DNA of 64,000 bases from Octopus vulgaris (Eukaryota), in NCBI GenBank assembly GCA_951406725.2, contig OX597831.1, positions 70,308,001 through 70,372,000 on the forward strand, written 5' to 3'. The number at the start of each line of letters is the position of its first letter. Position 1 is the stretch's first letter. The position numbers and the translations under genes were made by a program. This document shows positions 1,881 to 50,697 of the stretch, piece by piece. Under the pieces are notes generated by a model. That model searched no databases, was not told the origin of the DNA, and was given only the letters and a program-made list of their open reading frames with translations.

Positions 1881-1916
1881 CTTTTACATTTCGAGCCTAC
1901 GCTCTTCTACAGAAAG
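1881..1916 (-). ncRNA. Minimal type-I hammerhead-like motif (A6U core, extra 9b A) in a small (TA)n-flanked element at ~1790-1975
   Basis: Minus strand: CUUU-CUGUAGA-A-GAGC(GUAG)GCUC-GAA-AUGU-A-AAAG; stems I and II pair perfectly; stem III is one base off the ACGU palindrome. Confidence 0.55.
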
Positions 1917-2059
1917 GGACACGGAAAAACAAGGAGAGAAAAAAATGTGTGTAGTGGCTAACGATCTATCATGTCAAATAGTGCCGGACATAAATTGATC
2001 CGATTCATTAGCAGAATAAAAGAACGTTGAGAGCAGCACACTAGCGAAAAAATGCGTGT

Positions 2060-2330
2060 TCTTTAAATTCCTTTTTAAACTTACTACCATTCCTTAGTTA
2101 GCTAAGACATGAACACTAAATAAAAGAGCAAAGGAACATGTCAAAGGTTTTGTCCATATTAGCAAATACAAAGCAATATGGTTTATTGCTAGCAAAAAAT
2201 TTCTTTTAACCTTCTTAGAAATATGTCCATTGTGTGTTACACTGGCACAAACTCAAACTGAATTCGTCTTGTATTAACTTTACTAAAACTTCTTACCTTC
2301 TGGTTAAAACTTATTCTTTTAGTTTGAGAT
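2060..2330 (-). pseudogene. Heavily decayed RTE-type LINE RT fragment
   Basis: Minus-strand translation FFASNKPYCFVFANMDKTFD resembles RTE YLAKNKPLYxAFVDxEKAFD. Confidence 0.45.
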
Positions 2331-3407
2331 CCTCTTTGATAGATTGTCTCTTAGTGTCACTTTTTCTTTTTAGTGCAGTTCGTGTTGGTGTTATTACTAA
2401 TACGCCAGCTTTTGAGGATAGGACCTTTCTGAGCCACCCGATCAAATTCTTACCTTCCCCATTGTCACATTCCCAATTGTCTTAATCACTTTGACTGTAA
2501 TCTTAATATCTGTTATCTCCGTTGATTCCTCTTTATTTAAGTTGAGGTGTTTTTGGTAGAACCATGTAAGTTATATTAATAGCACATCCTTAATTTTAGT
2601 TTTACCACTATCAATCCTGTGCAGAGTAATTGGCTAAGAGATTGTCAGTTCATATCCTGATAGCAGCCATTGCATTGTGTCCAGAGCTAGGACCTTACCT
2701 TTGAACAATCCTGTTCATCTACTTATATATAAGTATTACAGAAGCAGGGCTAAAAAAATTTGCATAGATTTCTTAATTTAGATATCAGATAATTCTGCAA
2801 GTCTGGGTCTTGATAAAAAAGAACCAACTAATAACACAACCTTCATTTTAATCGTATATCCATTAACATCCCACAAGGAAATCAAAACTAAATGAAGCAC
2901 AATAATACTTATTTGATTGCTATATGAAAGTTCAGCACTAATATTTCTTTTATTCTTACTGCTTAACCAAAGAAGGAAGGGCATTTCCCTTGGTCCTGTA
3001 TTTTTCAGGGATTTTAAGACATGTGGAAAGAAAGGGAGGAAGTTATCTGCAAATCAAAGACATGGCCATAATTCTTGCATCAGACTGGCCTGAATTCTTG
3101 CATAGAAATAAAGAGACCCCATGGTGGTACTAAACATTACCAACCATGAATGCAAATTGCAAAAAGCCACAACAAATATCTCAAGACACCTCATCCAACA
3201 CTCTAAGAATTATTTTAGTCCACCATTAAGTATTTTATCTCCAAGTCCAGAGATTCAGAAGAAACATCAAACAATTCTGCCAATCCATTGGATAGAAAGG
3301 TTTCTGTGAGATTACACTGGATTAGAGAATTCTAACAAACTGTATCCTATGAGAGTGCTTGATCACAGAGCTCTCAAATCTTCTTCGCATAAATTTCTAT
3401 ACATATT

Positions 3408-3548
3408 TCGACCCCAGTGTTTCACTAGTACTTAATTTGTCGACCCTGAAGGAATGAAAGGCAAAGTCATACTCGGTGGCATTTGAACATAAAGTGGGAT
3501 AAGATGTTGCTATGCATTTTGCTCAGCATGCTAACAATTCTGCCTGAT
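3408..3548 (-). mobile_element. SINE family B, diverged
   Basis: CGACCCCAGTG...GAATGAAAGGCAAAGTC matches the reverse complement of the family B copy at 35101. Confidence 0.75.
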
Positions 3549-3558
3549 CACCATCTTA

Positions 3559-3602
<44 letters not shown>

Positions 3603-3638
3603 TAATAATGATGATGATGGTGGTGGTGATGGTGGTGG

Positions 3639-3684
<46 letters not shown>

Positions 3685-3700
3685 AACAACAGCAATAACA
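3559..3700. repeat. Compound (AAT)/(GAT)/(GGT) microsatellite
   Basis: Visible trinucleotide tracts. Confidence 0.95.
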
Positions 3701-3998
3701 ATCGTTGTGAAGGGCAGGTGTATCAGTGCTCTTCAGGCACATATTGGTGATTCAAATATTTAGTAAATTAACAAAGTGGAGGAAATTATATAAGACATTC
3801 CTGCCTTGAGTCCAATTTCCTATCCTTTGAGATTGTCAAATCAGTAAGAAAGGAGGAAATTTGCTAAATCATGGCAAAGATATATATATAGCAACACAAT
3901 AATAAATATGACAAGAGCATTAGAAAACCTTTGGCAATTCAATCTTCTGGAAGGTTTCCTGCAGATAAGAATCAGTTTTGTCCACACATGCACACACA

Positions 3999-4049
<51 letters not shown>

Positions 4050-4149
4050 TCACACACACACACATACACACGCACACACATATATACACACACACACATA
4101 CATGTGAGTATGAGTAAAACGAAGTCCTAAAAGCATATCATTAATGGCT

Positions 4150-5044
4150 TTATCCCAGCACCTGATCTGTACCTGTCAAGCTTTGTCAGGCACTGCAGTT
4201 CTTTGAGAGCAGACCAATACATTCCTTCCCCATTCCTGTACTACCAGTTATCCCTCTCCTTGAGACCACTTCCTTTTTCGTTCATCTTACACTCCCAACA
4301 TCATCCCATACCACTTTATTTTCCAATGAATGCCTCTTTTCCCTGAATGCCCTCTCATATTTGCCATTAATGTCCTCCTCACCCACTACTTTTATGGTCC
4401 CCCCTACATCCACTCCTACATGTCTCTGATCTCTGTCTTCATCTCTGTGAGTCTTCACTCTCCCTCTTTCTCACCTGTCTACAGTTTTGTATTATTGTTT
4501 CTCCCTACTCCTCCTCCCACTTTTATGCATTGCCACCTATCACCTCCTCCTCCCTCACCCACTCATATTTTCCTTTACCTTCTCTAGAACTGAGATCCAC
4601 AATGACCACACTTCAATCTATGCTCATCATTCACTGCTTTCACCTCTATCCTCATCTAGAACCTTCTGTCACGCTCCTTTTTATCCTCTTGCAAATCTAT
4701 CCACCCAGCCACCCTCAGTTCTCTCTTTATATACCTCCTCATACTTTGAGGGAACACCTTGACATGTAGTAACTAAGATCCTTTTGCTCTCTCCTCCTGG
4801 GGTAACTGTGTACCTCCACAGCAGCAAGACACCTGTTCCTGTCAAGCACAGAGCTACATATCTCAACACTGCATCCCCACTCTAATCAGTTGGGGTCTTG
4901 TAAGGTCTTGAAAACCTCAGTACTGCCAGTACCATAGAAAAAGGACCCAGTACACTCAGTAAAGTGGTTGGTGTTAGGAAGAGCCATCCAGTCTATGCCA
5001 GCATGGAAAATGGAAAACAGATGTAATGTAAAACAGCAATGATA

Positions 5045-5075
<31 letters not shown>
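4150..5075 (+). mobile_element. RTE-like 3' UTR/tail fragment ending in (GAT)n
   Basis: CT-rich UTR followed by GTGGTTGGTGTTAGGAAG...CATGGAAAA...(GAT)n, the same tail as the RTE element at 11395. Confidence 0.6.
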
Positions 5076-5076
<1 letters not shown>

Positions 5077-5085
5077 ATATATATA

Positions 5086-5466
5086 GGTGCAGGAGTGGCT
5101 GTGTGGTAAGTAGCTTGCTTACCAACCACATGGTTCGGGTTCATTCCCACTGCATGGCACCTTGAGCAAGTGTCTTCTACTATAGCCTTGGTAGACAGAA
5201 ACCGAGAGAAGCCCGTCGTATATATGTATATATGTATGTATGTGTGTGTATATGTTTGTGTGTCTGTGTTTGTCCCACAACATTGCTTGACAACCGATGG
5301 TGGTGTGTTTACATCCCCGTAACTTAGCGGTTCAGCAAAAGAGACCATTAGAATAAGTACTAGGTTTACAAAGAATAAGTCCTGGGGTCGATTTGCTCGA
5401 CTAAAGGTGGTGCTCCAGCATGGCTGCAGTCAAATGACTGAAACAAGTAAATGAGAAATAAAAGAG
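5086..5466 (+). mobile_element. SINE family A
   Basis: Full head-to-tail match. Confidence 0.9.
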
Positions 5467-5488
5467 AAAATATATATATATATATATA

Positions 5489-5881
5489 GGCGCAGGAGTG
5501 GCTGTGTGGTAAGCAGCTTGTTTACCAACCACATGGTTCCAGGTTCAGTCCCACTGCGTGGCATCTTGGGAAAGTGTCTTCTGCTATAGCCCTGGGCCGA
5601 CCAATGCCATGTGAGTGGATTTGGTAGACGGAAACTGAAAGAAGCCTGTCGTATATATGTATGTATATATATATATGTGTTTGTGTGTCTGTGTTTGTCC
5701 CCCTAGTGTTGCTTGACAACCAATGCTGGTGTGTTTACGTCCCCGTCACTCAGCGGTTCGGCAAAAGAGACCGATAGAATAAGTACTGGGCTTACAAAGA
5801 ATAAGTCCCGGGGTCGATTTGCTCGACTAAAGGCGGCGCTCCAGCATGGCTGCAGTCAAATGACTGAAACAAGTAAAAGAG
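5489..5881 (+). mobile_element. SINE family A, tandem to the previous copy across a (TA)n tract
   Basis: Full match ending GAAACAAGTAAAAGAG. Confidence 0.92.
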
Positions 5882-6961
5882 TATATAATAGTTAAATGTG
5901 ATCTTGAATACAGACATTGCTATTTATATTTCAAGAAACCAACACAATTCCATAGTATATTGTAAAACATATAAAAAAAAAAACCAAGAACTCAAACACA
6001 AACACTAAACTAACGTGGTTCCTACATTTGCTCAGTAGTGATTCATTAAAAGCTATTAAGTAATTTAGGTTAAAAAAAGGAAATAATTTTCATAAAATGT
6101 GTTTATCACTTAAAAATCATCCAAGATTGATTTCAACATCAGATTCTTTAAATAATTCCAGCCATCAGTAGACCATCTTCTTCATTTAAACTCACAGTGG
6201 AGTCTATACTTTTATCTTGAACACTGCACAACAGGTTATCTTTCATTCCATCTTGGAAACGGAAGATAACTTTTTACAATCTTACATCAATTATTGATGC
6301 CAGTCTTGAAAAAGCTCTTGAAAACCATTTGTTAAGTAGAGAATTCAAAGCAACATTAAACTTTGTAGCAGTAGTAGTAAAGTTAGGTTTTTCTAAATGA
6401 CCTCCCATTATTTTGTTTTGAATTTCATGAGAAAACATCCATGATATCCTTTGCTTCTTGAACTCTCTTTTCCTATCCATAGCTTCATTATAAAGTGTAT
6501 ACTAAAGACTTTTACTACAAGCATACATCAGTAATATTTTGAAGTGTTATTTTCTTAAATTGAATAATCACTTTTAAACAACAGAGAGTAAAATCACACA
6601 CCACCAGTGTTCTGTTAACAATTGCTTTGGGATGTATTCATTGCACATATAAAGTTACATGACTGCAGGCAATGAGATGTGTACATTAGATTAGAAAAGT
6701 CTCAGTTGCTACTTTCTGCATCTTTGTTTTTGCAGGCTTGTCATTGCATCTCTCCAGTCTAGCTATATATTTCTTTCTTATTCATTTGTTTATTTTATAC
6801 TCAAGTGTAATTCCACTTCTTACTGTTGACGAATTCTTTTGATATTAAATCACTCCATCGGTTATGAGAGTGAGAATTCCAGTTGATCTGATCAACAGAA
6901 CAGCCTGCTTGTGAAATGAATGTACAAGTGGCTGAGTTCTCCACAGACACGTGTACCCTTA

Positions 6962-7407
6962 GGAAGCCAGAAATTGAGATTGTTGAAGTCATAGAAATTG
7001 TCTTGCAAACACTTCTGACTCTTTCCAAGGAGCCGAATCCTGCTGCCACACATATGACTTTCCAGCAGCAACCTTCTCCAGCCAGGGCTTGACCACAGTC
7101 TCCAGAAGCTTCACACAGCTGTCTGAATTAAATCTTAGGCCCTGTTCAAAGATCTAAGGCAGCAAGACAACATTCACACTGAAGATACAGTCAGTGACCA
7201 TCACAGTTTAAGGGAAATTGATTTTTGTGATATATAGGCGCAGGAGTGGCTGTGTGGTAAGTAGCTTGCTAACCAACCACATGGTTCTGGGTTCAGTCCC
7301 ACTGTGTGACATCTTGGGCAAGTGTCTTCTACTATAGCCCCAGGCCGACCAATGCCTTGTGAGTGGATTTGGTAGACGGAAACTGAAAGAAGCCTGTCGT
7401 ATATATG

Positions 7408-7440
<33 letters not shown>

Positions 7441-8325
7441 TTGTGTGTCTGTGTTTGTCCCCCTAGCATTGCTTGACAACCTATGCTGGTGTGTTTACGT
7501 CCCCGTCACTTAGCAGTTCGTCAAAAGAGACCGATAGAATAAGTACTGGGCTTACAAAGAATAAGTCCCGGGGTCAATTTGCTCGACTAAAGGTGGTGCT
7601 CCAGCATGGCCACAGTCAAATGACTGAAACAAGTAAAAGAGTAAAAGAGTAAAGAGAGTAATAGGATACCACATGGATTGTAGGCAAGGGACCTGTTTTG
7701 CAAGATGTTGTGCAACTGGTCCTGGAAAAAATGTCTTTTTTTTAATATGTGAAGAACCAGATCATCTCCAGCTCAGCAAGAAGCCTAAGCTTGTTCAGGA
7801 ACTTCTTTGCCTTTGTCAAGCAGTTCTCTTTGGCTCTTTCACCTCTTGTACAGGTGGTAGTGAAGGTGCACTTTTAAAGCCAACTTCATGTTAGTGACTC
7901 CAACGCCCATCTCTCTCACAAAAACCTGGATTCCCTTGCTTGGATCTTCCATCACCTTTCCCTGCAGTTGTTAGATGAATTCTGGTGTGCAGATGCAGTC
8001 AAAACAACTGCTGTGTCTCTTCCTGCTGGCCACAGCTTTGTAATCCCCACTGCAGTTGTCCATGTCATGTTTTATAACCTTGGCAGCACTCACAGAGCAT
8101 TGAACTGCAGTCGTGATGTTGACAGTTTGATACTCAGCAGGAATAAGCTAACACTTTCCCAATACTCAGATGGCTTCCAGTCCTCCATATCTGCCACTTT
8201 TTTCTCAACTACTACTCGAACGTTTATGCTCTCCAACACTGTTGACTCTTTTCTAAATACATCCATGCCATCCCTGATAAAAAGAAGACATGAAAAATTA
8301 TCAAATTTAACCCAAACATCCTCAG
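6962..8325 (-). mobile_element. Decayed Tc1/mariner-superfamily transposase (DD37D/maT-like), interrupted by a SINE
   Basis: Minus-strand translation IFEQGLRFNSDSCVKLLETVVKPWLEKVAAGKSYVWQQDSAP (~7035-7155); possible N-terminus MEDWKPSEYW near 8190. Confidence 0.7.
7237..7660 (+). mobile_element. SINE family A
   Basis: Full match with (GTAAAAGA)n tail. Confidence 0.92.
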
Positions 8326-8396
8326 TGTGTGTGTGTGTATGTGTGTGTATGTGTATTTGTGTGTGTGCTTGTGTATGTGTGTGTTTGTGTGTGTTT

Positions 8397-8457
<61 letters not shown>

Positions 8458-8494
8458 TGTGGTTGTGTGTGTGTGTGTTTGTGTGTTCTGTGTG

Positions 8495-8554
<60 letters not shown>

Positions 8555-8645
8555 TGTGTGTGTTTGTGTGTTTTTGTATGTGTGTGTGTGCTTGTGTGTG
8601 TTTGTGTTTGTGTTTGTGTGTGTGTGCGTGCGTGTGTGTGTGCGT
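8325..8645. repeat. Long imperfect (TG)n microsatellite
   Basis: Visible dinucleotide tract. Confidence 0.95.
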
Positions 8646-9274
8646 ATACTCATGCATTTACAAATACATTTTACCTTCCCTTACAATGTTTGTCCTTGTG
8701 TCTGTATTCGAAATTTATGCCCCTGTTTCCATATTAAAAATCTGTGACCTTCCCATCATATTAGAATTCACTATTCAAATTTGCTGAACTGTTAATTTAG
8801 CTTTTAGAATGTTTTTACCAGAGTTATATTTATACATTATTTTGATCAGTTTGATCTCTGATCTTTATCAAATATTTTATCCTTTGATATGGTTAGTCTG
8901 TTGCATGGTGTATAAGCTTATCACTGCATTTCGAATTGGTTTGATAAAGGTATTATATCTATAAATATTGTAAAATATTTATATAAACTGGTGATTAATA
9001 ATCCAGAAAATTATAATCTTATGTCAGACATTTTGACTTTTGGCCAACTACTGACAGAGATGCTGCTGTTGAACCTCATGTCCATGCTGATGAGCAGGAC
9101 ACTGACCAGAAGTAGTTCAGCCATAATCTTCACTTTGAAGCAACCAATTTACAAATCACTATGTCCTTTTGTCGTTTTCATATTCTGAGTTTGTGATATT
9201 GTCTAAGATGCCACTTGTGATAGAATCTGTTGAGACAATATTTCAATAATAGAAGTCTGTGTTGCTTGTAGAAG

Positions 9275-10097: not shown

Positions 10098-10505
10098 TAC
10101 TCTTTTACTCTTTTACCTGTTTCAGTCATTTGACTGTGGCCATGCTGGAGCACCACCTTTAGTCGAGCAAATCGACCCCGGGACTTATTCTTTGTAAGCC
10201 TAGTACTTATTCTATCAGTCTCTTTTGCCGAACCGCTAAGTGACGGGGATGAAAACACACCAGCATAGGTTGTCAAGCAATGCTAGGGGGACAAACACAG
10301 ACACACAAACATATACACACACATACATATATATATACATATATACGACAGGCTTCTTTCAGTTTCCGTCTACCAAATCCACTCACAAGGCATTGGTCGG
10401 CCCGGGGCTATAGCAGAAGACACTTGCCCAAGATGCCACGCAGTAGGACTGAACCCAGGACCATGTGATTGGTTAGCAAGCTACTTACCACACAGCCACT
10501 CCTGC
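10098..10505 (-). mobile_element. SINE family A
   Basis: Full reverse-complement match. Confidence 0.92.
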
Positions 10506-10692
10506 AGGGCATTATGAAATTGTTTTCCTATAATCATTACTGTAGGTAAGCTATTTTAAAGTTGGTATATTTTCTCCTTGAATGATTCTTAGTTCTTCAG
10601 TTTTTGCTCCAGAAATCTAAAATAGAATAGGTGCAGATAAAATTCCTGGGGAGTTTTGAATTTCACTAAATGCATGGGGAAAATAATATAAT

Positions 10693-14320: not shown

Positions 14321-15124
14321 AATACCCACCAAATGTAAATAATGTAAATAATCTAAAAATGAAAACCTAAAAATAAAATGTTTGACAATACTAGCTCTGT
14401 GGCCAGGTGACAATAATAGCTATCTTTCACAAAATAAGAACATCAGGTATGATGGCCCCATAAATAAAGAGAGGACCAGGAATGAATACCCCAGAAGAGT
14501 AAAAGAGAATATGGCCACCAGAACTCTCAGCTTACAAGCATATTGCCCTCAACACCTTTGCAGTGTCTGTCCTCAAGCCTACAATTTTGGTAAGCAGCTA
14601 CTCTCTGGACACCTGTGTGATTAAGAAAATTGAAAGAGAACAAATATATCTACAGACCATTGATAAAAATTAAACAAATTCAATAGAAGGGATTCACTTT
14701 CAGCTTCATATCTATTATTATTGGAGTAACAAGATACAGACAAGACTGACTCGAGCAGAGTATGGTAGAACCTAGGGTCTTGGAGAAAGAAAGCAAATCC
14801 TTGATGCATATGCTTCAAATGATCCCGATATCTGGAACAATAAAATTCTGCAAGACCCTTTCAAGATTTAAAGGATGATAGTTAAAAGAAGATACTTTCC
14901 TTCATAACCTTGTTACCAAGTAGGTGGCTGGTCAAAATTTATTCTATATTAAAATGAAAAAGAGAACAAGACGTTCATGAGGTAGTTAACTCCCCTGTCA
15001 GTGTTCATATATTGCACTCTTCTTACATCATACACACACATACATATACATATGCATGTGTCTGTATATATGTACATATGTATGTGCATATATGTGTATA
15101 TATGTGTGTGTATATATATATATA

Positions 15125-15340
15125 TATGTAGAAAATCCCAAAAAGAAGAACAAACACAAAAAACATCAACGCAAGGAAGTGGTACATGTAAAGTATTAGC
15201 AGACATGCAGGGAAGGAAAGAAAGATGGTTTAATGGTTGAAGCAGATGGTCTTTTTGGGAAATAGAGCAAAGTCCAACAGAAGGGAAGACGGAGGAAGAA
15301 AATCGTCAACGATTCACATGTGGTTTCATTTTGAAATAAC
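15125..15340 (-). mobile_element. Degenerate relative of the hammerhead-bearing element at 24500 and 31815
   Basis: Follows (TA)n and shares the ...AAAGTATTA...CAGG...GAAAGA..GGTTTAA...GAAGGGAAGAC.GAGGA layout; the ribozyme core is eroded. Confidence 0.55.
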
Positions 15341-15619: not shown

Positions 15620-16150
15620 GCCTCCCCTCGGAAAGTTTGTGAGGAGCCCATTGACCCATTTTGCTGACTTTTCTGATAGCATGCAGGTGTTGATGAATGG
15701 TTGAATAACCAAATCCAAGCTTCTCTGCTAGTTCCTCAACAGATACGATGGGATTTTGTTGCACCAGAGTTTACAGGACGTCCTCATTGCACACAACAGA
15801 TCTTCCAGCATGAGGCTTATCTTCTAGGCTGTACTTACTAGCTCAGAATTTCTGGCACCACTGTTGACACTAGCTTACACTTATTGTCCAATCTCCATAT
15901 AATATTCCTCACACTTTCCACTGCATTGTTACCTTTACTGAACTCATAAAGGAAAATATGCCGAAGTTGCTTCTTTGTCATTTCCATTATAGCTTTAAAA
16001 GAATAACTGTTAAAATCGAACTGCATTCTTCAAAAAACTTGCACTAAGATTAAGGACGAGGTAAGATTACTACCTACTTTTAGAACAAGTTGATGCAGAT
16101 AGTTTATCCCATCCCCTTCTGACTTTAAATTCATGCAATTGAAAAAAATG
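15620..16150 (-). mobile_element. Mariner transposase 5' remnant
   Basis: MEMTKKQLRHIFLYEFSKGNNAVESVRNI and ELAEKLGFGYSTIHQHLHAIRKVSKMGQWAPHKLSE (WVPHEL-like motif). Confidence 0.85.
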
Positions 16151-16154
16151 CATA

Positions 16155-16398
16155 GGCACAGGAGTGGCTGTGTAGTAAGTAGCTTGCTTACCAACCACAT
16201 AGTTCCGGGTTCAGTCCCACTGCGTGGCACCTTGGGCAAGTGTCTTCTACTATAGCTTCGGGCCGACCAAAGCCTTGTGAGTGGATTTGGTAGACGGAAA
16301 CTGAAAGAAGCCCGTTGTATATATGTATATATATGTATGTGCGTGTGTGTTTGTGTGTCTGTGTTTGTTCCCCTAGCATTGCTTGACAACCGATGCTG
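16155..16398 (+). mobile_element. SINE family A, 3'-truncated
   Basis: Head match; breaks off after ACAACCGATGCTG. Confidence 0.9.
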
Positions 16399-16620
16399 AA
16401 TCACTTTGAATTTGTTCTGTATATCCGATTGTATCGCACAGTTGAAAGGAATATTCAGCCATAATATATCTTTTTTATTAAATTTAGGGTTCGTAGAATT
16501 ACTACTATTCATCTCACCGGAGTTATTGTGAGAATTGAAACCCACCTCGTTGTAATTAAAAATGGATAAGTTTGTCTTCTGTGAGTATGTAATCCCTCAT
16601 CATATCTCTGGAAATTCATA
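16399..16620 (-). mobile_element. Penelope-like element ORF remnant (region after RT)
   Basis: KKDILWLNIPFNCAIQSDIQNKF resembles the PLE motif RxIIWFNPPFSxxVxTNIGxxF. Confidence 0.6.
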
Positions 16621-16808
16621 TGTGCACTATGGATTAGGTCACCTTCTCTGTGATGCTATTAAAACTTTTTTAAAATTCTGTGATAAGACTGTACATCATC
16701 TTTAAAGAACTTTAATGAACTTTTGAAATCTGTTTATGTTACTTAATTATCTACATTACTTCATGAGTATAGCCTCAACCACTAGGATGTCTAGAGAACT
16801 CACATGTA

Positions 16809-16899
16809 TTTTAGCTGATGAGTACGGGACACGTTTATATGCTGTAATTTTTGCAACTTTTAATAAAGCCTGTCCTTGTATGAAACGATTGTACTAAAA
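16809..16899 (+). ncRNA. Type-I hammerhead ribozyme, canonical core
   Basis: UUUUAG-CUGAUGA-GUACGGGACA...UGUCCUUGUAU-GAA-ACGAUUGU-A-CUAAAA; 6-bp perfect stem I, long stem II, quasi-palindromic stem III, GUA cleavage triplet. Confidence 0.8.
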
Positions 16900-16951
16900 A
16901 CCTATCCATTCTTGTTGCTTCATTCTCGCGTATATATATATATATATATAT

Positions 16952-20181: not shown

Positions 20182-20345
20182 AGGCGTGGCTGTGCGGTAA
20201 GTAGCTTACTTCCCAACCACATGATTGCAGGTTCAGTCCCACTGTGTGGCACCTTGGGCAAGTGTCTTCTACTATAGCCTCAGGCCGACCAAAGCCTTGT
20301 GAGTGGATTTGGTAGATGGAAACTGAAAGAAGCCTGTCGTATATA
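20182..20345 (+). mobile_element. SINE family A, 5' half
   Basis: Head through GAAGCCTGTCGTATATA. Confidence 0.85.
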
Positions 20346-20473
20346 TTAGTACGGCATTGATTCATTTACTGCCAACTGAAACTGTGCTTGCGTGGTGAAT
20401 TTGAAAAATTATAATGTATAATGATGAGACACTTGGTATTCGTCCCTTAATTATATGTTAGTGTTACGGTGCG

Positions 20474-20543
20474 GGCCACTGATGAGAAATTTGCCTAGCA
20501 AATTATTTTACTTGCTAAAATATTTTGAAACCTAGATCTGACC
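20474..20543 (+). ncRNA. Type-I hammerhead motif, canonical core, slightly decayed
   Basis: GGCCA-CUGAUGA-GAAAU..UAGCAA..UUGCUA..AUUUU-GAA-ACCUAGAU-C-UGACC; one mismatch in stem I and one in the ACCUAGGU-type stem III palindrome. Confidence 0.65.
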
Positions 20544-20574
20544 GGATTAAAATAATTGGATTTGGGTAAAAGAA

Positions 20575-20710
20575 AATACAGGAGGATCAGTTAATTATGG
20601 CTTTATTCTACATATTCCCCTCTTAGATTCACACACTTATTGCAATGGTCCTTCAGTTTTTCTAAGTCTTGTAAAAGAACTTAGAAGGTTGAGTTTTCAA
20701 CCAGGCCATT
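20575..20710. mobile_element. Dispersed mariner-like end fragment (second copy at ~22467-22630)
   Basis: AATACAGGAGGATCAGTTAATTATGGCTTTATTCTACATATTCCCCTC... is near-identical at both sites. Confidence 0.6.
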
Positions 20711-20827
20711 TTCATTCCTTTTGAAGATTGCTCTTAAGTGTGGTTTTGGTCGTTTTGACTACTTCTTCTAGCGTGTAAAAATTGCCTGTTGAAGGCAGTT
20801 TTCTCTTGTGTTTAAATGTACACTATT

Positions 20828-20859
<32 letters not shown>

Positions 20860-24499: not shown

Positions 24500-24595
24500 A
24501 AGTTAATCCAAACAAGAAAGTACAAAAAACACAACACGAGGACATGGAACAAATACAGTATTATTGGACGCTCAGGAAAGAAGGAAAGAAGGAGG

Positions 24596-24630
24596 GTTTA
24601 ACGTTTCGAGCGGAGCTCTTCGTCGGAAAC
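24596..24630 (-). ncRNA. Minimal type-I hammerhead motif (U4C core, extra 9b A) within a (TA)n-flanked element at ~24500-24660
   Basis: Minus strand: GUUU-CCGACGA-A-GAGC(UCC)GCUC-GAA-ACGU-U-AAAC. Confidence 0.7.
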
Positions 24631-29495: not shown

Positions 29496-30531
29496 AAGAT
29501 CATTCCAAGAGATTTGACACTTATTCCTTACAATTAGATGAGCTGAAATATATAAAAGTATCTTTCTGAAAAATATAACAGAATGCCTCCATAAGATTTG
29601 AACTTATGTGCTATTTGCACCAATGCTCTCACCTCACAGTCTGCTGTGAATTTCTTAATGCTAATGAAAATCTAAAATTTCCAGAGAACTCTAATCCATG
29701 TTTGAAGAGATAAATAGATAAAATGCCGAAAAGAAATCCAAATAAAAATGGAATCTGCCATGCCAGTATGAAAAATGGGATAATAATTGATATTTATGCT
29801 TTTAGCCAAATATAAAAAAAAACGATGTGCAAGTACTTCAGAATCCATCACGCTGTTTCAATAGCAAAGCTCTAGTCAGGGTCCATTTGTTATTGAGTTA
29901 ATCAAATTTGCCAATGCTATATGGATGAGAAAACACAGTAATATTTTAGCCTTATCCTTTTCCGGGTGAATCATAACTTCACAAAAGGCAAGGGTTTGAA
30001 CAAACATGGAAATTTGTAGTTATCAGTTGAATGCATTCTATCAATTATCCTATAAGTTTTATTTTATATTTAAATTTCGTTCGGACATATTGAATAGTTT
30101 CATTAAACGAGAAGATATAATCCACCGCTTTCTTTTGATTCAAAGAACTATTCCTATTCAACATCCGTTTTCCCATATTTCTGTGACTGAATTGTGAATT
30201 CTTGCAACAAAGAAAGGGAAAAATCTATTACTAAAACATGATTACATTGATGGTTTAGATTATTTTTACTGATATTTGATTCAATGAGGCATTAATTCTA
30301 ATCGAATCAAAAATAAGCCCTCCCAAATAAATGACAATTTTGATAACTTACAATATTCATTTAGAAAAGGATGTGAAGCAATATACCAAGAAAGTAATAT
30401 ATCTCAGTATATTGCCATATATCATTAGAGTTCATCTGCATGATGGAAGGGAAATATTATAGCTGTAAAAGTGCAACTGGAGTACAAACCATAGCACTAC
30501 ATTCATTGTACAATCATTTTTTTTTTACACC

Positions 30532-30880
30532 TATGCAATGCACAAGAATTTTCTTACCTCTGTTTTCATGGTTACATAACAGCATTTACTATTTCATAGT
30601 CAAGAGTTCAAAAAGTGGAAGCTTACATCTGTGAAAGCACTTCTTTTATAACACGCTAATGTTAAGGTTTTTTAAGCCATTCATTTTACTCCAATAAAGA
30701 AAAAAGTAATGTATAGGCACAGGAGTGGCTGCGTGGTAAGTAGCTTGCTAACCAACCACATGATTCCAGGTTCAGTCCCACTGCGTGGCATCTTGGGCAA
30801 GTGTCTTCTGCTATAGCCCCGGGCCGACCAATGCCTTGTGAGTGGATTTGGTAGACGGAAACTGAAAGAAGCCTGTCGTA

Positions 30881-30919
<39 letters not shown>

Positions 30920-31314
30920 TTGTTTGTCTGTGTTTGTCCCCCTAGCATTGCTTGACAACCGATGCTGGTGTGTTTACGTCCCCATCACTTAGCGGTTCGG
31001 CAAAAGAGACCGATAGAATAACTACTGGGCTTACAAAGAATAAGTCCCGGGGTTGATTTGCTCGACTAAAGGCGGTGCTCCAGCATGGCCGCAGTCAAAT
31101 GACTGAAACAAGTAAAAGAGTAAAAGAGTATGCAATGCACAAGAATTTTCTTACCTCTGTTTTCATGGTTACATAAAAACATTTACTATTTCGTAGTCAA
31201 GAGTTCAAAAAGTGGGAACTTACACCAGTGAAAACACTACCTTTATAACACGTTAATGTTAAGTTATTTTTAAGCCATTCATTTTACTCCAATAAAGAAA
31301 AAAAGTAACGTATA
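30532..31314. repeat. ~185-bp direct repeats (30532-30715 and 31129-31314) bracketing a SINE
   Basis: TATGCAATGCACAAGAATTTTC...AAGTAA(T/C)GTATA on both sides; roughly 15 differences by eye. Confidence 0.9.
30716..31128 (+). mobile_element. SINE family A, full length
   Basis: GGCACAGGAGTGG to GTAAAAGAG. Confidence 0.93.
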
Positions 31315-31774: not shown

Positions 31775-31820
<46 letters not shown>

Positions 31821-31922
31821 ATCCAAACAAGAAAACACAGAAAAAAAAGAGAAAAAACACAGCAATGCGAGGACGTGGAACAATTAAAGTATTATTGACG
31901 CTCAGGAAAGAAGGGAAGGAGG

Positions 31923-31957
31923 GTTTAACGTTTCGAGCAGAGCTCTTCGTCGGAAAC
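31923..31957 (-). ncRNA. Minimal type-I hammerhead motif (U4C, 9b A), second copy, in an element at ~31815-32100
   Basis: Minus strand: GUUU-CCGACGA-A-GAGC(UCU)GCUC-GAA-ACGU-U-AAAC; differs from the 24596 copy only in loop II. Confidence 0.7.
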
Positions 31958-32279
31958 AAGGAGAAGGAAAGATCCCAAGAAGGGAAGACAGAGGAAAAAA
32001 TATTTTTGCTGGTGGTGCTCAAGAGATCACATGTTGAAAGAACAGAAGTTGAGAGGTAGACGAATCATGGTTTTTAAAAGCAAGAGAGTTTCAAAAAAAG
32101 GTGTGTGTGCAAGGATGACAAGTTTGTTTGTTTGTGCGTGTGTGTGTGTGTGTGTGTATTTATGGTGAATAATAAGCAATGGCAAGTAGGCTGTCATAAG
32201 GCACTCCTTTATGACTACTAGCTTCTTTGTATCCAGCCAGGTCAAAGCCAGGTCAAAAAACAAAGGGGTATATGTATCG

Positions 32280-35100: not shown

Positions 35101-35515
35101 GGCGGCGAGCTGGCAGAAGCGTCAGCACGCCGGGCGAAATGCGTAGCCGTATTTCGTCTGCCGTTACGTTCTGAGTTCAAATTCTGCCGAGGTCGACTTT
35201 GCCTTTCATCCTTTCGGGGTCGATTAAATAAGTACCAGTTACGCACTGGGGTCGATATAATCGACTTAATCCATTTGTCTGTCCTTGTTTGTCCTCTCTG
35301 TGTTTAGCCCCTTGTGGGTAGTAAAGAAATAGAAATAGGTATTTCGTCTGCCGCTACGTTCTGAGTTCAAATTCCGCCGAGGTCGACTTTGCCTTTCATC
35401 CTTTTGGGGTCGATTAAATAAGTACCAGTTACGCACTGGGGTCGATATAATCCGTTTGTCTGTCCTTGTTTGTCCTCTCTGTGTTTAGCCCCTTGTGGGT
35501 AGTAAAGAAATAGGT
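35101..35515 (+). mobile_element. SINE family B, full copy plus 5'-truncated tandem copy, inserted in the Gypsy integrase
   Basis: GGCGGCGAGCTGGCAG head; the second unit starts at ~35338; GGTAT at the left flank, the junction and the right flank. Confidence 0.92.
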
Positions 35516-36756
35516 ATGGCACCATAGTTATATGTTCTACTGTGAATGTTTCACAAAATTTTTTAAATTCGCAAGACACAAATTGTGTTCCGTTCTCAGA
35601 CACTATCTTGTCTGAGATGTCAAATCTTGCAAGCAATTCATGTAAAATATTTATTACGGTTGAGGAGGTTGATTTTTTACACTTACAAATTTCAGGCCAT
35701 TTCGAAAAACTATCAACTACCTCTAAATAGTAAGAACCGTTTAAAGAACCAGTGAAATCGATGTGTAGTCACGGAACATCTACTTTTGGCCAAGCTTCAA
35801 TTTTTATAGTTGGTAATTTTGCTGATAGAGCACATCCGCTGCAGCCTGTCATCAATTTTTCGATTTCTCTGTCCATTTTTGGCCAGTATACATAACTCCA
35901 AAGTAAAGCTTTCATCCTTGAAATATCCGGATATCCGACATGAAATTCTCTTAACATTTTGTTTTGTAGTGTGTTTCTGGTATTACTACTCTGTGTGCAT
36001 ACATCAGTACACTATCATACATTGAGTATAGGGTCATGCCTTGCTTTCGTTTCACAGTAAACCTATTCCTATTTGCTTCTGTTGACGACAATGTTCATTT
36101 TGTTTCCCTTATAAACTGGTCTTTTAATATATTCCGCTTTATATCTCAGTAACTCTCGAAATACGTTCCACATCACGTTTTTTTTTTTATTTCACCTTCA
36201 GTTCTTAGAGCTGTGATTACCCATATATTCGAATGGTTTACCGTGTTTTAGTATCAATCTGGACAAACCATCCACATGCCCTAGTTTTTCGACGGCAAAT
36301 ACTCGAATACTCCATTCTGTAGTCGTAATTTAATAGTACAGTTCCCCATTTCTGTAGTCTTTTTTGCTGTGTGTTTTGGGATTCCTTTTTTGGAACCATA
36401 TATTGTCAGTAGTGGGCGGTGATGTGTTTGCAAACAGAAACGTCTTCCATGAATAAATCTATGGAACTTCTTGACACCATATATAATTGCAAACAACTTC
36501 TTTTTCTATCTGACTACAATACTTTTCAGCTGGCAATAACAACCTTGACGCATGGGCTATAGCCTTTCTTCTGTCATCGTCCCGCTTGTGGTGTAGGAGC
36601 ACTGCTCCAACCCCGTACTCACTAGCATCTGTAGCCAGTATCGTTTCCAACTTTAGATCGAAATGTGTTAGTGATAGGACAGAAGTTAAAATATTTTTTA
36701 ACTCCTCAAATACCTTCTAGCACTTATCTGTCCAAAACCATTTTGTATTCTTTTTC

Positions 36757-36913
36757 AGGAGTGGCTGTGTGGTAAGTAGCTTGCTTACCAGCCACATGGT
36801 TCCGGGTTCAGTCCCACTGCGTGGCATCTTGGGCAAGTGTCTTCTGCAATAGCCCCGGGCCGATCAATGCCTTGTGAGTGGATTTGGTAGACGGAAACTG
36901 GAAGAAGCCTGTC

Positions 36914-36991
<78 letters not shown>

Positions 36992-37209
36992 GTGTGCTTG
37001 TGTGTCTGTGTTTGTCCCCCTAGCATTACTTGACAACCGATGCTGGTGTGTATACGTCCCCCGTAACTTAGCAGTTCGGCAAAAAGAGACCGATAGAATA
37101 AGTACTGGGTTTACAAAGAATAAGTCCCGGGGTCGATTTGCTCGACTAAAGGTGGTGCTCCAGCATGGCCGAAGTCAAATGACTGAAACAAGTAAAAGAA
37201 AAAAAAAAG
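36757..37209 (+). mobile_element. SINE family A inserted between Gypsy RT and RNase H
   Basis: Full match interrupting pol. Confidence 0.92.
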
Positions 37210-37277
37210 CAGTTCATGAGTGGGGCCTTTATATTATATATGTTTAGAATATAAACTTGATAATAGTTCACCAAACT

Positions 37278-37838
37278 TTAAAATATTGTAATGTTTGTTG
37301 AGGGGGGCATATTTTTTATTGCATTCACCCTTGTTGGATCTGATCTGCGTCCATCATAATCAATGACTTGTCCTAAGTATTTGATTTTTTTCAGCAAGAA
37401 TTCACACTTTTCCTCTGTTAATCTGAACTCGTATTCGCTTATTTTCCTGAATACTCTTTTAATATGTTCGAAGTGTTGCTCCTGTGACTTACCCTTTATC
37501 AAAATATCGTCCAAATAGGTGATAGCGAAATCACAGTCACTTGGCATCGCATCCATTATTTGCTGAAATATGGCAGGAGCCACTTTTACTCTGAAGGGAA
37601 GCTGCTTAAATCTAAATAAATCATCGTGTTTGTTTATTGTTAACAAATGTGTGCCTTCTTCCTCTACTTGTATTTGTAAATATGCCTCCGGGAGGTCTAA
37701 TTCTGAGAAAAATTTTGCTTCTTTTAATTTTGCAAACACTTTCACCAGACTCGACAATGGATAGTTGTGTGCGACTAAGCAGGTATTCAACCCTGGTGAA
37801 AAAGTTGCACGCACTCTTAGTTTGTTATTCTTTTCCAC
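37278..37838 (-). pseudogene. Gypsy reverse-transcriptase core (largest open pol segment)
   Basis: 186-aa ORF with YLDD and KCEFLLKKIKYLG. Confidence 0.9.
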
Positions 37839-39765
37839 GTAAACCCTCGGTGCTGCTCAGTCTGCGTGGTCAATTTTTTCCATTATGCCAAGACTTTCCA
37901 TTCTTTCCACTTCTTTGTTAACCTGGTCTATTGCTGCAAATGGCACATTCCGTTTGGGTCTAAAGACCGTTGGGTTGTGCAACAACCCAACTCTTCCAAA
38001 AACACATCTGGAAATAATTTTAAAATGTCTTTCAGCCTCATTCGATCCTTTGACCGAACCCATTAAGTTTTCACACAGAACACTTATGGGTGTATCCCAC
38101 TATTTAAGTAGTTCTATCCATTCAGTGCCGAATAAATTAAATGAATCTTTCAACACATAAATCTCTGCCTTTTTCATTTGACCTCTAAAAGTTACATTGC
38201 ATTCAAATTCACCGAAAAAATATACTCTTTTTCCTGTAACACGATAGGCTACCATTTTAGATTTGATTAAATTCGGCTTACTGACATATTACCACAATTT
38301 TTCGTTTATAACAGTAACGTCACTCCCATTTTAACATTTGCATTTTTGATTTTCACCTTCTTGAGTTTCCTCATCGTTGTATTACCAATTTCTTTTGATG
38401 ACATACTATTTATTTCTTTCCCTTTGTTCTGACATTTTGTCGGGTTCATTTTAAAGTGCGTCTTTATATGTCCTATATTTCCACAACGAGAACAGTCCGT
38501 TTTTTTTTAATGGACAATTTTTCCATAGGTGCATACCCTCCTATGCAAAATATAGGTTTATTTCATGATGTTTGTCGTATTTTTTAGAAAATACTTTATC
38601 TCTATTCAGACAATTCTGTACTGGTTTTACTTGGAAACAATCTTTACATTCAACTTCCTCTGTGTCGCGTCTTAATTTAAGGATCCTTTCACATTCTTCA
38701 GATATTTTTTGCAGGGTTACATCCTGGTTTTGCTCCAGCTTTGCAAGAATTCTAGTTCTGACTTCGGCATCCTTTTTGGCAGTAAGACCCTGTGTAAATA
38801 ATCACGCATTTGAACATATCTGGAGTTGATTTATTCAGTTTAAACTTCTCTCATTTCCCGTTTACTCTTCCAGCATATGTGATGTAGTCTTTGCCATTGT
38901 TTTTCTCTATGTTCAGACACTTCCAACGTGTGTTAAACAACGACCATCTTTTACTGAAAATTTTACACAATATATCAATTGTGTCATTAAAATTTATGTC
39001 CGAAGGTTTTCTTGGAAGTACTTAATTACAGTATTGTTTACGTTCTGCTGCCACCAGTTTTCTCAAGATCGAGCACGTTTTCATCTCATCGTCTCAATTT
39101 TTACATTCTTTATCAAAACTTTTTCTCTTATCTTCTGTAATATGCTTTGAAGGTAATTCCATCGCCTAGTTCCTTCTTTGAACTCTGTTATGGAGTTCGC
39201 GACATAGTCTGGCGAGAACACTTTTTCTAACTTTCCTGATGACTTTAGTAATTGTAGCATTTGTTGTAATATTATTTGTTGTTGTTGTTGCTTCTGTTAT
39301 CGCTCTTGAAGTTGTATCTGCTGTTGGTGGTGTTGTTGTTGCTCCAGCTGTTGTTCTTGCAATTGTAGCTGCTGCTGTTGTTCTTTCAGTTGCTGTTGTC
39401 ACTGTTTTTGCAACTTGAGTATACGGCCAACAAATTTTACATAATCTTACGCTTTTTTTTTCCACAAAATTAACACACCAAAATTTTGTGAGTTTATTAA
39501 TTCCTCTTCGAGTTTCTATTAACTCTACGTGAAATGGTTTATCCTCGTTGAGTTTATTAATTCCTCATGAGTTGTCTAACTCCTCGTCACCACTGTTGTA
39601 ACTTGCGTCGTCACTGGTTTAATTCTTTTTAGATTATTATAACGTCCACTTCGGTATACAGTATACTTAGTAAAACCAGTAAAGACACGACTATCTCTGA
39701 CCGACTTCTGTGGTCCTATTTACAGTAACAACTCATACCACTTGTTATGTTGGTGGGGTGTACCA

Positions 39766-41556: not shown

Positions 41557-41557
41557 T

Positions 41558-47047: not shown

Positions 47048-47090
<43 letters not shown>

Positions 47091-47284
47091 TATTCACTTA
47101 GTACCAGGGTTCATTTATGTATAAAATACATTATGCAAAGGTAAATATTCCTCAGTGGTTTGTTGCTTGACTGGCTTAAAAACTTTTAAGCAGGTAAGCA
47201 TGGCAGTGCTTAAAAAAGGCTGGAGAATATTAAAAATATTTCGTTGCAGATAATTCAGTCTTGTATCAGAATGATTCAACTATA

Positions 47285-47650: not shown

Positions 47651-47689
47651 ATATTGTGATAGATAGATAGATAGATGTATTGCACCAAA

Positions 47690-48450: not shown

Positions 48451-48828
48451 AGGTATCAGACAAGAATACTTTTGCTTAGATCCTATTATTTACTGGTAAC
48501 AAAGAAGAACAGGAAGAAGAGTTACTATAGTGGAAGAATTATTCTACCAACACGTGCAATTTGAATGACTTATGTTTGTTGATAAAAAAGGGATGCCCAC
48601 TTTTGCCTTACTTTCATACAACCCATGTGTGTGTGTGTGTGTTATTTGTAGAACATTTGTATGTACAAAAATTATCAAAATTACATTTGTTGTTATTGTT
48701 TTGTGTACCATTTCATCTCAAGCAATTTTACTGGCAAGATGAATTAGTTTACAGAAACATTCAAAAGCTTTTCTTGTCTACAAAAGATACATTAAAAAAG
48801 ACTCTCAAATGCATACACAAGTATACAT

Positions 48829-48859
<31 letters not shown>

Positions 48860-49287
48860 CATGTACGTGTGTGTGTGCGCTTGCATGTGTGTATATACAT
48901 ACATATATATATATATATAACTGTTACAATATGTATTAATGTTTAGTGTTGCCTAAATGCTCCGTGGTTTGAATGAACAGTATGACAATAAATTTATCGA
49001 TGTATTCAGCATACTGAAATTAATTGAGAAAAGTGATTTTATTGGCTGCATTGAGTTACCCATTCTGGGTCAAAATATTACAAAATCTTCATCCATATTT
49101 TTTTTCATGTACAAGAGCGGAACATCTCTTCTGAGACACAGCCAATTACAGCAAAGGCAGGTACTTGAAAATTGAGGAGATGAAAGAATCCCAAAGGACA
49201 CTTGAACATTGATTATGACTTGCTCTTTTGGTTACAAAAATGTTATGAGTGCTATGTGTGATTTGGATAACAATAATGATGATGACG

Positions 49288-49358
<71 letters not shown>

Positions 49359-49372
49359 AAAAAGAAGAAGAA

Positions 49373-49761
49373 GAAATCAGCAAAATGTGGAACCTGAAGA
49401 CTAAAACAATACCTGTTGTCATAGGTGCCCTGGGAATGATAGCAAAAGGCGCTGATTGCTACCTAACTCATATACCAGGAAACCCCAAAATGGCAGAAAT
49501 TCAAAAGATAGTGCTCATGGGAACTGCTCATATCCTACGCAAAACACTTTCTATGTAATCTCAAGTTTGAAAACAAACCTAATTTTCGTGTATTTTTTTT
49601 TTGGACATTCACTAGTACAACACTAAATACAAAACCAAATATATGGCACACTAGGCATAACAACAACACGAACTTCCAACCTGTTGTCTCTTGAGACTTG
49701 GAGCCAACTTGTTCAGATATAAAGCAAAAGTCAAACATATAATAATAATAATAATAATAAT
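49373..49761 (+). mobile_element. 5'-truncated R4/Dong-like RLE non-LTR retrotransposon 3' end
   Basis: Open frame EISKMWNLKTKTIPVVIGALGMI...EIQKIVLMGTAHILRKTLSM* (49373-49558), 3' UTR, (TAA)n on both sides. Confidence 0.8.
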
Positions 49762-50151
49762 GATTTGACCATAAGCACTTGAACATGTTTCTTAATGGCA
49801 GACAATAGGTGCATCTCTGATCATAAGCAGAAATATTGGGGGAGCATCATAGCCATGTGTTGAGAGGAATTCTTTGGGTTTTGGATAATTCATCTTTGGA
49901 AACAGGTATTTTGTTCAACATCCTTAAACAACCCTTATTCAGGGACCTTTTGAGTGGGATGGGCTACTCGACCTAAAGAAAATTCTAACTGGGCCCTTCC
50001 TGCAAGGTCATGCACTGTTAATCTTGTTGTGAGATCACCATATCATGCATATAGGGTTGTGATGCATGTGACGGGTAGTCATGATGGCTATACTGGGCTT
50101 TGTATATTTTACCCCAGTGTCACTTTGATGGCATGCACTGCACTCTCACTC

Positions 50152-50189
<38 letters not shown>

Positions 50190-50190
50190 T
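49762..50190 (+). mobile_element. Unclassified retroposon ending in (AAT)n
   Basis: ~390-bp insert between two (TAA)n tracts ending CTCTCACTC(AAT)n. Confidence 0.45.
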
Positions 50191-50541
50191 GATGATGATG
50201 ATGGTGATAATAAAAACGTTTCAAATTTAGGCACAATGTTAGGAATTACGAGGGGGTGAGGCAAGTTGATTGCATCAGACCCAAATAATAATAATCATTT
50301 ATTTAGCCACTAAAAGTAATTTCATTGAATTCTATTCATTTACACGAACCATTAAAAACTAGGGAGGATTAGAAGAATATGGGAAAGTGGTTGGTCAGAG
50401 AAGATGGGCTAGGAATTTTCTACAAATAAGACACTTTAAAAATTTGTATAAAAGCCTTGTGAATAAATAATTGGAAGGTGTTTGTAAGCCATTTAAGAAA
50501 CACACAAAAGCCGTTCGATTCACTTCAACATTTAAGTTTAA

Positions 50542-50592
50542 TTTGTCAAAATATTTTCGTCGCTTTAAGACCGCGACCTGTTCACTGACAAA
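50542..50592 (-). ncRNA. Type-I hammerhead motif, G3:C8 variant (left arm)
   Basis: Reverse complement identical to 50647-50697. Confidence 0.7.
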
Positions 50593-50646
50593 AATCCATG
50601 CTGACAAAAATCCGAGATACAGCACGAATTTTTGTCAGCACGGATT

Positions 50647-50697
50647 TTTGTCAGTGAACAGGTCGCGGTCTTAAAGCGACGAAAATATTTTGACAAA
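50647..50697 (+). ncRNA. Type-I hammerhead motif, G3:C8 variant (right arm)
   Basis: UUUGUCA-GUGAACA-G-GUCGC(GGUCUUAAA)GCGAC-GAA-AAUAUU-U-UGACAAA. Confidence 0.7.

Follow-up and report, generated by a model that had tools for sequence, protein, structure and literature searches.

Seven hammerhead motifs in a 64-kb octopus sequence as probable remnants of Penelope-like element terminal repeats

A 64-kb stretch of the Octopus vulgaris genome (contig OX597831.1, positions 70,308,001 to 70,372,000; hereafter the window, within a 2.8-Gb genome of 227 contigs) contains seven motifs that resemble the hammerhead ribozyme, which raises the question of where these motifs come from and whether they do anything at this place. 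In itself the window is an ordinary repeat-rich stretch, with 36% G+C and abundant microsatellites and short repeats. The reading that we prefer, with a probability of roughly 0.8, is that the seven motifs are minimal type-I hammerheads in the 3′ terminal repeats of four lineages of Penelope-like elements (PLEs), three of them linked to coding open reading frames (ORFs) and the fourth likely to be a PLE as well, and that they were left here as six truncated or short copies, which were likely inserted from uncleaved RNA and would be largely inert.

Hammerhead motifs in the window

All seven motifs of the original prediction were found, and the coordinates given to them mark the outer ends of stem I. 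We refer to them as families A (motif 1881), B (24596 and 31923), C (16809), D (20474) and E (50542 and 50647). The copies that carry them are listed here with their motifs; genomic loci are designated by L and a number, reverse transcriptase is abbreviated as RT and the pseudo-long terminal repeat as pLTR.

1791–1989 (−): short copy of lineage A, the 3′ end of a putative Neptune-type PLE, ending at (TA)n; linked to an ORF via L267 and L354–L373
1881–1916 (−): minimal type-I hammerhead motif with A6U core (CUGUAGA), an added A, stems I and II of 4 bp each and AUGU as stem III; cut predicted after 1885
15089–15335 (−): old, decayed relative of lineage B, 71% identical to L073, hammerhead unrecognisable
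16398–16529 (−): inverted fragment of the family C ORF, linker region (tblastn 97% over 38–41 amino acids (aa); blastn 99%)
16532–16930 (+): 3′ untranslated region (UTR)/pLTR of family C, by sequence comparison a young Hydra-clade PLE, 5′-truncated, ending at (TA)n
16809–16899 (+): type-I hammerhead motif with canonical core (CUGAUGA), a long stem II and ACGAUUGU as stem III; cut predicted after 16893
20345–20833 (+): family D copy, split at ~20556–20708 by a different repeat; only its architecture is PLE-like, and no linked ORF was found
20474–20543 (+): decayed hammerhead motif with the core CUGAUGA; compared with its family, stems I and III are mismatched
24501–24658 (−): short copy of lineage B (sister of A), between microsatellites
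24596–24630 (−): minimal hammerhead motif with U4C core (CCGACGA), an added A and ACGU as stem III; cut predicted after 24600
31816–32000 (−): second short copy of lineage B
31923–31957 (−): minimal hammerhead motif with U4C core (CCGACGA), an added A and ACGU as stem III; cut predicted after 31927
50472–50831 (+): palindromic insertion of family E, an inverted arm and a direct arm with tail; parents L405 and L406 with RT thumb and GIY-YIG
50542–50592 (−): hammerhead motif in the inverted arm, core GUGAACA (G3–C8), extra G, 7-bp stem I, 5-bp stem II, stem III AAUAUU
50647–50697 (+): direct-arm copy of the same G3–C8 motif; cut predicted after 50690

The motifs have the type-I core (CUGANGA and GAAA) in a three-way junction, an open stem I and a NUH cut site. 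The core is canonical in C and D and carries one change each in A (A6U), B (U4C) and E (a G3–C8 swap), and an extra base lies between positions 9 and 10.1 in A, B and E and is absent in C and D; the three predicted combinations of a core change with an added base (A6U with A, U4C with A, G3–C8 with G) were all confirmed. The shared type-I topology with a palindromic stem III also held for every family, with one correction: the stem III of motif 1881 itself is AUGU, and ACGU is that of its family. Because these shared features are those of the PLE minimal hammerhead described by Cervera 2014 (PMC4209133), namely type I with a short stem I, a base between 9 and 10.1, G10.1 opening stem II and a palindromic stem III, they are not new. 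That report also describes, as seen here, mostly single copies from truncated PLEs, opposite-strand pairs 100–700 bp apart, thousands of copies and several families per genome, and a U3–A8 variant. The octopus lineages differ in that the extra base is H in Cervera 2014 and G in family E, in that the alignment rows available from PMC4209133 contain no G3–C8, A6U or U4C core, and in copy number, at least 38,000 here for two patterns versus 2,000–9,000 in the larger cases of that report.

A relaxed type-I scan (positions 3 and 8 paired, at most one core change, optional base 9b, palindromic stem III) recovered six of the seven motifs from the window together with one weak match at 31695(−), far above the dinucleotide-shuffled controls proposed for it: 60 shuffles in 1-kb blocks gave a mean of 0.13 matches and a maximum of 1, and a second set of 100 shuffles gave 0.16 and 2. 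The D motif fails the scan because of a C–A mismatch in stem I and because it has ACCUAGAU instead of the family's ACCUAGGU. The scan matches at 31695(−) and 35702(+) were taken as chance. Since the descriptor was written after the motifs had been seen, the shuffle control is a generous one, and position and covariation are therefore stronger evidence than scan counts. The relaxed scan found no match in 39.7 kb of flanking DNA. In 20 unselected 10-kb stretches it gave 9 matches at 3 loci (shuffle mean 0.375, maximum 3), and a single tandem array accounted for 7 of the 9; taken alone, this unselected sample gives a weak estimate of the genome-wide density. An Rfam search of the window returned no hammerhead (0 at the gathering score, none among 129 matches at E up to 5), and the matches at E up to 5 were microsatellite-driven microRNA matches only.

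How many independent insertions do the seven motifs represent? The original prediction spoke of at least five unrelated families; several lineages are indeed present, but the number was overstated. Its statement that the stems are unrelated did not stand, as motif 1881 has stem II (GAGC/GCUC), stem III and downstream sequence in common with 24596 and 31923. Because 93 of 142 aligned positions are identical between A and B (E 3e-9) and the two fall into a single cluster when scan matches are clustered, we regard them as one lineage. The motifs at 50542(−) and 50647(+) are the two arms of one palindromic insertion, 50472–50831, and the seven motifs thus come down to six insertions from four lineages. 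The decayed copy at 15089–15335(−) is an eighth copy, of the B lineage.

That the genome holds a large and diverse population of such elements, as had been suggested, was borne out. An exact pattern for the A/B lineage (1881, 24596 and 31923) matched 33,556 times genome-wide and one for family E (50542 and 50647) 4,951 times, with 0 matches for both reversed-pattern controls; as lower bounds, these counts stand for at least 33,556 and at least 4,951 copies. The expected number of exact matches per 64 kb is 0.77 for A/B and 0.11 for E, whereas the window holds 2 and 2, and it is therefore richer than average. A scan of 1.8 Mb, mostly of targeted loci, gave 278 distinct matches in 20 clusters, 12 of which have at least two members.

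Parent elements and ORF links

The PLE origin proposed for the motifs could be traced to GIY-YIG ORFs for three of the four lineages. In the parents of A, C and E, the hammerhead lies downstream, on the same strand, of a frame for a GIY-YIG protein with RT sequence, and this is a single ORF with a C-terminal GIY-YIG upstream of the terminal repeat (in E, the RT thumb and the endonuclease only); Pfam scores of these ORFs are near or under the cut-off. The architecture is likewise that of PLEs, with tandem pLTRs in C, common inverted 5′ arms in C, D and E, and 3′ ends followed by (TA)n in 41/46 copies of A, 41/47 of B, 8/8 of C and 21/41 of E. A 5′ pLTR was not seen in 20 A loci with long ORFs.

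For the 3′ end of family C, the 40 best genome matches each show 100% identity over ~250 nt. The parents have stop-free frames of 941–984 codons, including intact 980-aa ORFs, with RWK, DKT, YRDD, CxCX5C and GIY-YIG motifs, and in 5 of 7 full-length loci a hammerhead is found on both sides, ~205–230 nt before the frame and ~1.5 kb after it. The full protein has no Pfam match, and a fragment gives a sub-threshold RVT_1 match. A relative of C in L222 shows compensated stem changes. Judged from its sequence, family C is a young Hydra-clade PLE: RWK, DKT, CxCX5C, C-terminal GIY-YIG, CxxC/CxH, (TA)n targets and a canonical hammerhead are shared with the Hydra-clade PLEs of Craig et al. 2021 (PMC8557442). 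At ~4.6 kb per unit, with an Asn-rich linker and a 980-codon frame, it is longer than the under-3-kb elements described there, among which is the 2,507-bp Hydra-1_Obim. The inverted ORF fragment at 16398–16529, joined to the C 3′ end, is a 5′ inversion typical of PLE insertions. Contigs of four runs, whose RNA status is a guess, cover the C element in 25–30 of 30 bins; ends, strand and circles are not readable from contigs.

Two further observations were made on family C. Its protein (L220:2504–5443 (−)), in which the long Asn-rich linker lies between RT and endonuclease, has 31 homologs at E ≤1e-20, nearly all unnamed and ~700 aa in length, and the homolog P0027, with an Octopus label, is 69% identical over 21% of the query. 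At L082, L084, L085, L108, L110 and other C loci, the direct copy stops ~37 nt past the cut site and the inverted copy has a further tail of ~120 nt, versus the 30–40-nt tail described for PLEs.

Upstream of A, we walked through a pyrimidine-rich UTR into RT and GIY-YIG sequence. The A6U hammerhead is located downstream, on the same strand, of RT and GIY-YIG frames of 606–1047 codons in 18 of 20 loci, which were chosen for long open frames and have a mean pairwise identity of 93.5%. The linker CSRPRCRTC in the A parent and CQSNCAVC in the E parent precede GIY-YIG, and both parents have microsatellites at their ends. A CX2-5CxxC linker before GIY-YIG and microsatellite ends are also described for Neptune/Nematis PLEs (PMC8557442), and the A linker is compatible with that putative assignment; the A6U and G3–C8 cores set the A and E parents apart from those PLEs. 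Family B is tied to A through sequence similarity.

Family E could be followed through a longer form with 443 exact matches genome-wide: in L405 and L406, the E hammerhead is preceded by a frame with RT thumb and GIY-YIG, and a long inverted arm is present; the GIY-YIG domain of the parent scores 24.9 bits in Pfam against a cut-off of 22.6. In the window copy, the discrete 5′ boundary of E is at 50615, at the arm junction, and is preceded by G. We rejected the reading of 50472–50831 as a miniature inverted-repeat transposable element, given its asymmetric ends, the existence of single-arm copies and a parent with a PLE ORF. Nested insertion accounts for the ORF found upstream of E in L348 and L185 and for the one considered for B in L188, and these links were rejected as well; in L404, the tandem E pair lacks an ORF and is the product of a local duplication. 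Family D, with inverted copies and a fixed core, is likely also a PLE.

Variant cores and the ends of copies

If the motifs belong to PLEs, why do so many have an altered core? Among the first 30 A/B pattern matches, 20 are A6U, 6 are U4C with A6 and 4 are canonical. In a set of 171 A/B copies from which pattern-selected loci were excluded, U4 and A6 are the only sites that vary between subfamilies among 22 sites in the core, 9b, stem II and stem III, versus 56 of 132 flank sites (p = 8e-5 with U4 and A6 excluded post hoc). C3, G5, G8, A9, G12, A13 and A14 are fixed across subfamilies, N7, H17 and loop II are free to vary, and stem I covaries between C–G and G–C. The E core GUGAACA with its extra G is present in 63 of 77 copies. 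Variable positions make up 1 of the 40 structured sites of E and 7 of the 24 sites of its loop II and 5′ flank (p 0.003). Covariation or constraint within families is therefore clear in A/B, modest in E, and visible in the compensated C relative in L222. Over the 278 scan matches, the 3–8 pair is C–G in 198, G–C in 72 and U–A in 8; the scan required pairing and the counts reflect targeting. We also came across a PLE family with a U3–A8 core (UUGAAAA; 6 distinct matches) at L185:1840–1880 (−) and in L056 and L275, whose hammerhead in L185 lies ~740 nt downstream of a GIY-YIG ORF.

As far as we have checked, a natural G3–C8 core (at least 4,951 copies) is new, and so is the fixation of A6U in autonomous elements whose fold is otherwise kept (a lineage of at least 33,556 copies). 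In the literature found, from which subscription journals were mostly absent, there is no report of a natural G3–C8 or A6U PLE hammerhead, nor of a cap-derived G in PLE copies. These cores may already be reported by Lunse et al. 2016, a study of small PLE hammerhead variants. Natural U3–A8 and A6C cores and a viroid U4C core are described in a section of PMC3088659 that names no G3–C8 or A6U, and the A6C hammerhead there cleaves at <0.1 per min.

One possible interpretation is that the variant cores (A6U, U4C and perhaps G3–C8) are dead ribozymes, with stems that are kept for a different task, for example to be bound by the PLE protein, to guide folding for it or to form part of a promoter. 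We take this seriously without favouring it. A6 changes lower activity to <0.1 per min in a phage hammerhead, catalytic mutants were without effect on PLE insertion in vitro (PMC11167929), and the A/B lineage has reached at least 33,556 copies, yet only 4 of its first 30 pattern matches keep the canonical core. However, the seven fixed positions, with N7, H17 and loop II left to vary, form the pattern of a catalytic constraint, and the pairing of 3 with 8 as C–G, G–C or U–A according to family, with the reservation made above for the scan, also speaks against dead ribozymes.

We prefer a reading in which the ribozyme is slow rather than lost. The PLE protein would nick AT-rich DNA and reverse-transcribe the RNA from its 3′ end, as in target-primed reverse transcription, and most copies would keep only the hammerhead region because reverse transcription starts at that end. 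Short transcripts from a promoter in the terminal repeat would serve as the template for the short A, B and E copies. Cleavage would be slow and would depend either on dimers paired via the palindromic stem III or on assistance by the PLE protein, and insertion would not require it; under these conditions, lineages could fix G3–C8, A6U and U4C while the fold stays constrained, G3–C8 being a compensated swap and A6U and U4C likely weakening changes. The inactive monomers and weakly active dimers of PMC4209133 agree with slow dimeric cleavage. In PMC11167929 the hammerhead needed the PLE protein, catalytic mutants still inserted and C3G/G8C partly restored cleavage, which also agrees with this proposal. 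In that study (Frangieh et al. 2024), the PAc Poseidon element of Anolis is inserted mainly from uncleaved RNA, reads that stop at the cut site are absent and the 3′ tail is optional, and in these respects the octopus copies would resemble it; G3–C8 in PAc is a laboratory rescue double mutant, whereas in E it is the natural state of thousands of copies.

The ends of the copies fit a template that was not cleaved. Loci retrieved for one family happened to contain copies of others, and the 5′ ends of 37 such copies (A 16, B 13, E 8) were examined. Not one of them begins 5 nt or less from the predicted cut, and in 17 the first base is at most 8 nt away from a boundary that lies upstream of the cut site by 97 nt in A, 91 nt in B and 59 nt in E. 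The boundary sequences are TCAGTC (A), TCAAAA (B) and TCAGAT (E), and TCA-type boundaries resemble the initiator consensus. According to the literature, PLE terminal repeats contain an internal promoter. Because the 5′ boundary is common and initiator-like, many of the short A, B and E copies are likely to come from short transcripts of the terminal-repeat promoter, and it is likely that copies were inserted from uncleaved RNA; short copies with 5′ ends piled upstream of the ribozyme are, to the extent of our search, new. In short E copies, G occupies position −1 in 16 of 19, where the parent has C (p 7e-10 against a genome G frequency of 0.18; 2 of 21 rows were removed as parent-type). Loose contig ends stop at the same E boundary base, with G last, in 59 contigs of run X15 and 8 of run X2, runs whose RNA status is again guessed. 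In L1-type insertions, a copied cap leaves an untemplated 5′ G, and the extra G at the E boundary is likely a record of the RNA cap.

Several results weigh against the preferred reading. When five motifs were folded as monomers and compared with shuffles, four were no better (z −1.3 to 0.2), E being at z −2.4. No ORF linked to the hammerhead was found within 1.5 kb in 38 loci of family B or in 30 loci of family D, and the D stems are as variable as the D flanks. The E tail varies at 13 of 127 sites, without a clear contrast with the structured sites, and the support from constraint in E is modest because the tail, too, varies little. The sample of 5′ ends is small; a corresponding test for C was left unused, as its first run was spoiled by (TA)n in the reference and the repeat (34 copies, all starting at least 194 nt upstream) was locus-biased. 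Of the 16 E copies with this G, 8 may owe it to the inverted arm (CCG), the remaining class giving 8 of 11, and short copies of A and B show no G excess. Finally, the E boundary resembles a 3′ splice site, CTAAC ... TTTCTCAG.

This resemblance allows another explanation of the G, in which short E copies start at a 3′ splice site and a short or host exon spliced onto ATGCAGC supplies the G and sets the boundary. The parent indeed has CTAAC, a polypyrimidine stretch and CAG right before the boundary, and the intron of the Penelope pLTR is reported in the literature to end at helix I. We consider this explanation unlikely, since E copies have nothing in common upstream of the G, the retained AG is preceded by G and not by the A or C that is usual at exon ends, and contigs aligned to L406 show no spliced joint.

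Host transcripts, other repeats and meaning

Could the dispersed motifs be active in host transcripts, cleaving pre-mRNA or giving circular RNAs? The very high copy number, a young family C with a canonical core, and the presence elsewhere in the genome of tandem retrozyme-like arrays, which yield circular RNAs in other animals, would be in keeping with this. The copies in the window, however, are all single and lie on both strands, D is decayed, and the E arms pair with each other: the fold predicted for a transcript spanning both arms of 50472–50831 is a single long hairpin (−233 kcal/mol) in which both motifs are hidden. Monomers of this class are reported to be inactive in vitro (PMC4209133) or to need the PLE protein (PMC11167929). 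No host gene was detected either: a domain search with 126 of 157 candidate window ORFs (those of at least 62 aa) found transposon domains only and no host-protein domain, a survey in which short exons would be missed, and it gave no support to an intronic position of the window. Since the copies are single, on both strands, broken in D and predicted to fold into one hairpin in E, cleavage of host RNA by the window copies is unlikely, and we hold a role of the dispersed motifs in host transcripts to be improbable.

Non-coding type-I units related to PLE pLTRs and dispersed as monomers are also known as non-LTR (long terminal repeat) retrozymes (PMC7229834; bioRxiv 10.64898/2026.07.22.740005). 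As described in these sources, retrozymes are tandem units of ~170–400 nt, each with a hammerhead, that give circular RNAs, whereas each of the six insertions in the window stands alone and corresponds to the 3′ end of a coding parent. A retrozyme-like tandem array was found at L412:2200–4700 (G000:C1:20002200–20004700), with units of 353–359 nt, each with a canonical type-I hammerhead (CUGACGA, stem III ACCGGU), in five direct and two inverted copies. On the basis of its sequence, this array is a better candidate for circular RNA than any copy in the window.

The idea that a loose descriptor picked up the motifs by chance within ordinary repeats has next to no probability, because, set against the missing Rfam match, the weak monomer folding, the chance-like match at 31695 and an unselected 200 kb that gave only three loci where shuffles had a mean of 0.375 and a maximum of 3, there are 7 matches versus 0.13–0.16 in shuffles of the window, a fixed position in PLE terminal repeats, agreement with the published consensus (PMC4209133) and compensatory changes in stem I, so that position and covariation refute chance for A, B, C and E.

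The window also contains other repeats. Decayed pol pieces of an LTR retrotransposon lie at 35370–37856 (−), with RT, RNase H and the zinc finger and core of integrase in Pfam; a fragment of a Mariner-type helix-turn-helix lies at 15841–16029 (−) and a Pif1 helicase fragment, likely from a Helitron, at 53820–54185 (+). An inverted repeat that is not a microsatellite (28206–28597 and 29112–29503) has 392-nt arms, 99% complementary and 514 nt apart. A common interspersed repeat of 230–400 nt with an internal (TA)n/(TG)n tract has at least 14 window copies on both strands, for example at 479–713, 5479–5778, 7227–7526, 10282–10516 and 30706–31005, and these are likely short interspersed nuclear elements (SINEs).

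The function of the hammerhead in PLEs has been called “still unclear” (PMC8557442), and the hammerhead was not required for PLE insertion in vitro (PMC11167929). Tentatively, the octopus genome may be viewed as a natural mutagenesis of the hammerhead core in mobile elements: different PLE families use C–G, U–A and G–C at 3–8, A6U is fixed in coding elements while other core sites stay constant, and tens of thousands of SINE-like copies would have arisen from short capped terminal-repeat transcripts that were inserted uncleaved, slowed cleavage perhaps being favoured as it preserves the template for insertion. Most of these copies escape both canonical descriptors and Rfam, so that the number of hammerheads in genomes of this kind is underestimated. 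A natural G3–C8 family would confirm the 3–8 tertiary pair by covariation. With related elements that carry canonical, U4C, A6U and G3–C8 cores, a young family with an intact ORF and a precise boundary of a short RNA, the role of the hammerhead in PLEs is testable in this genome.

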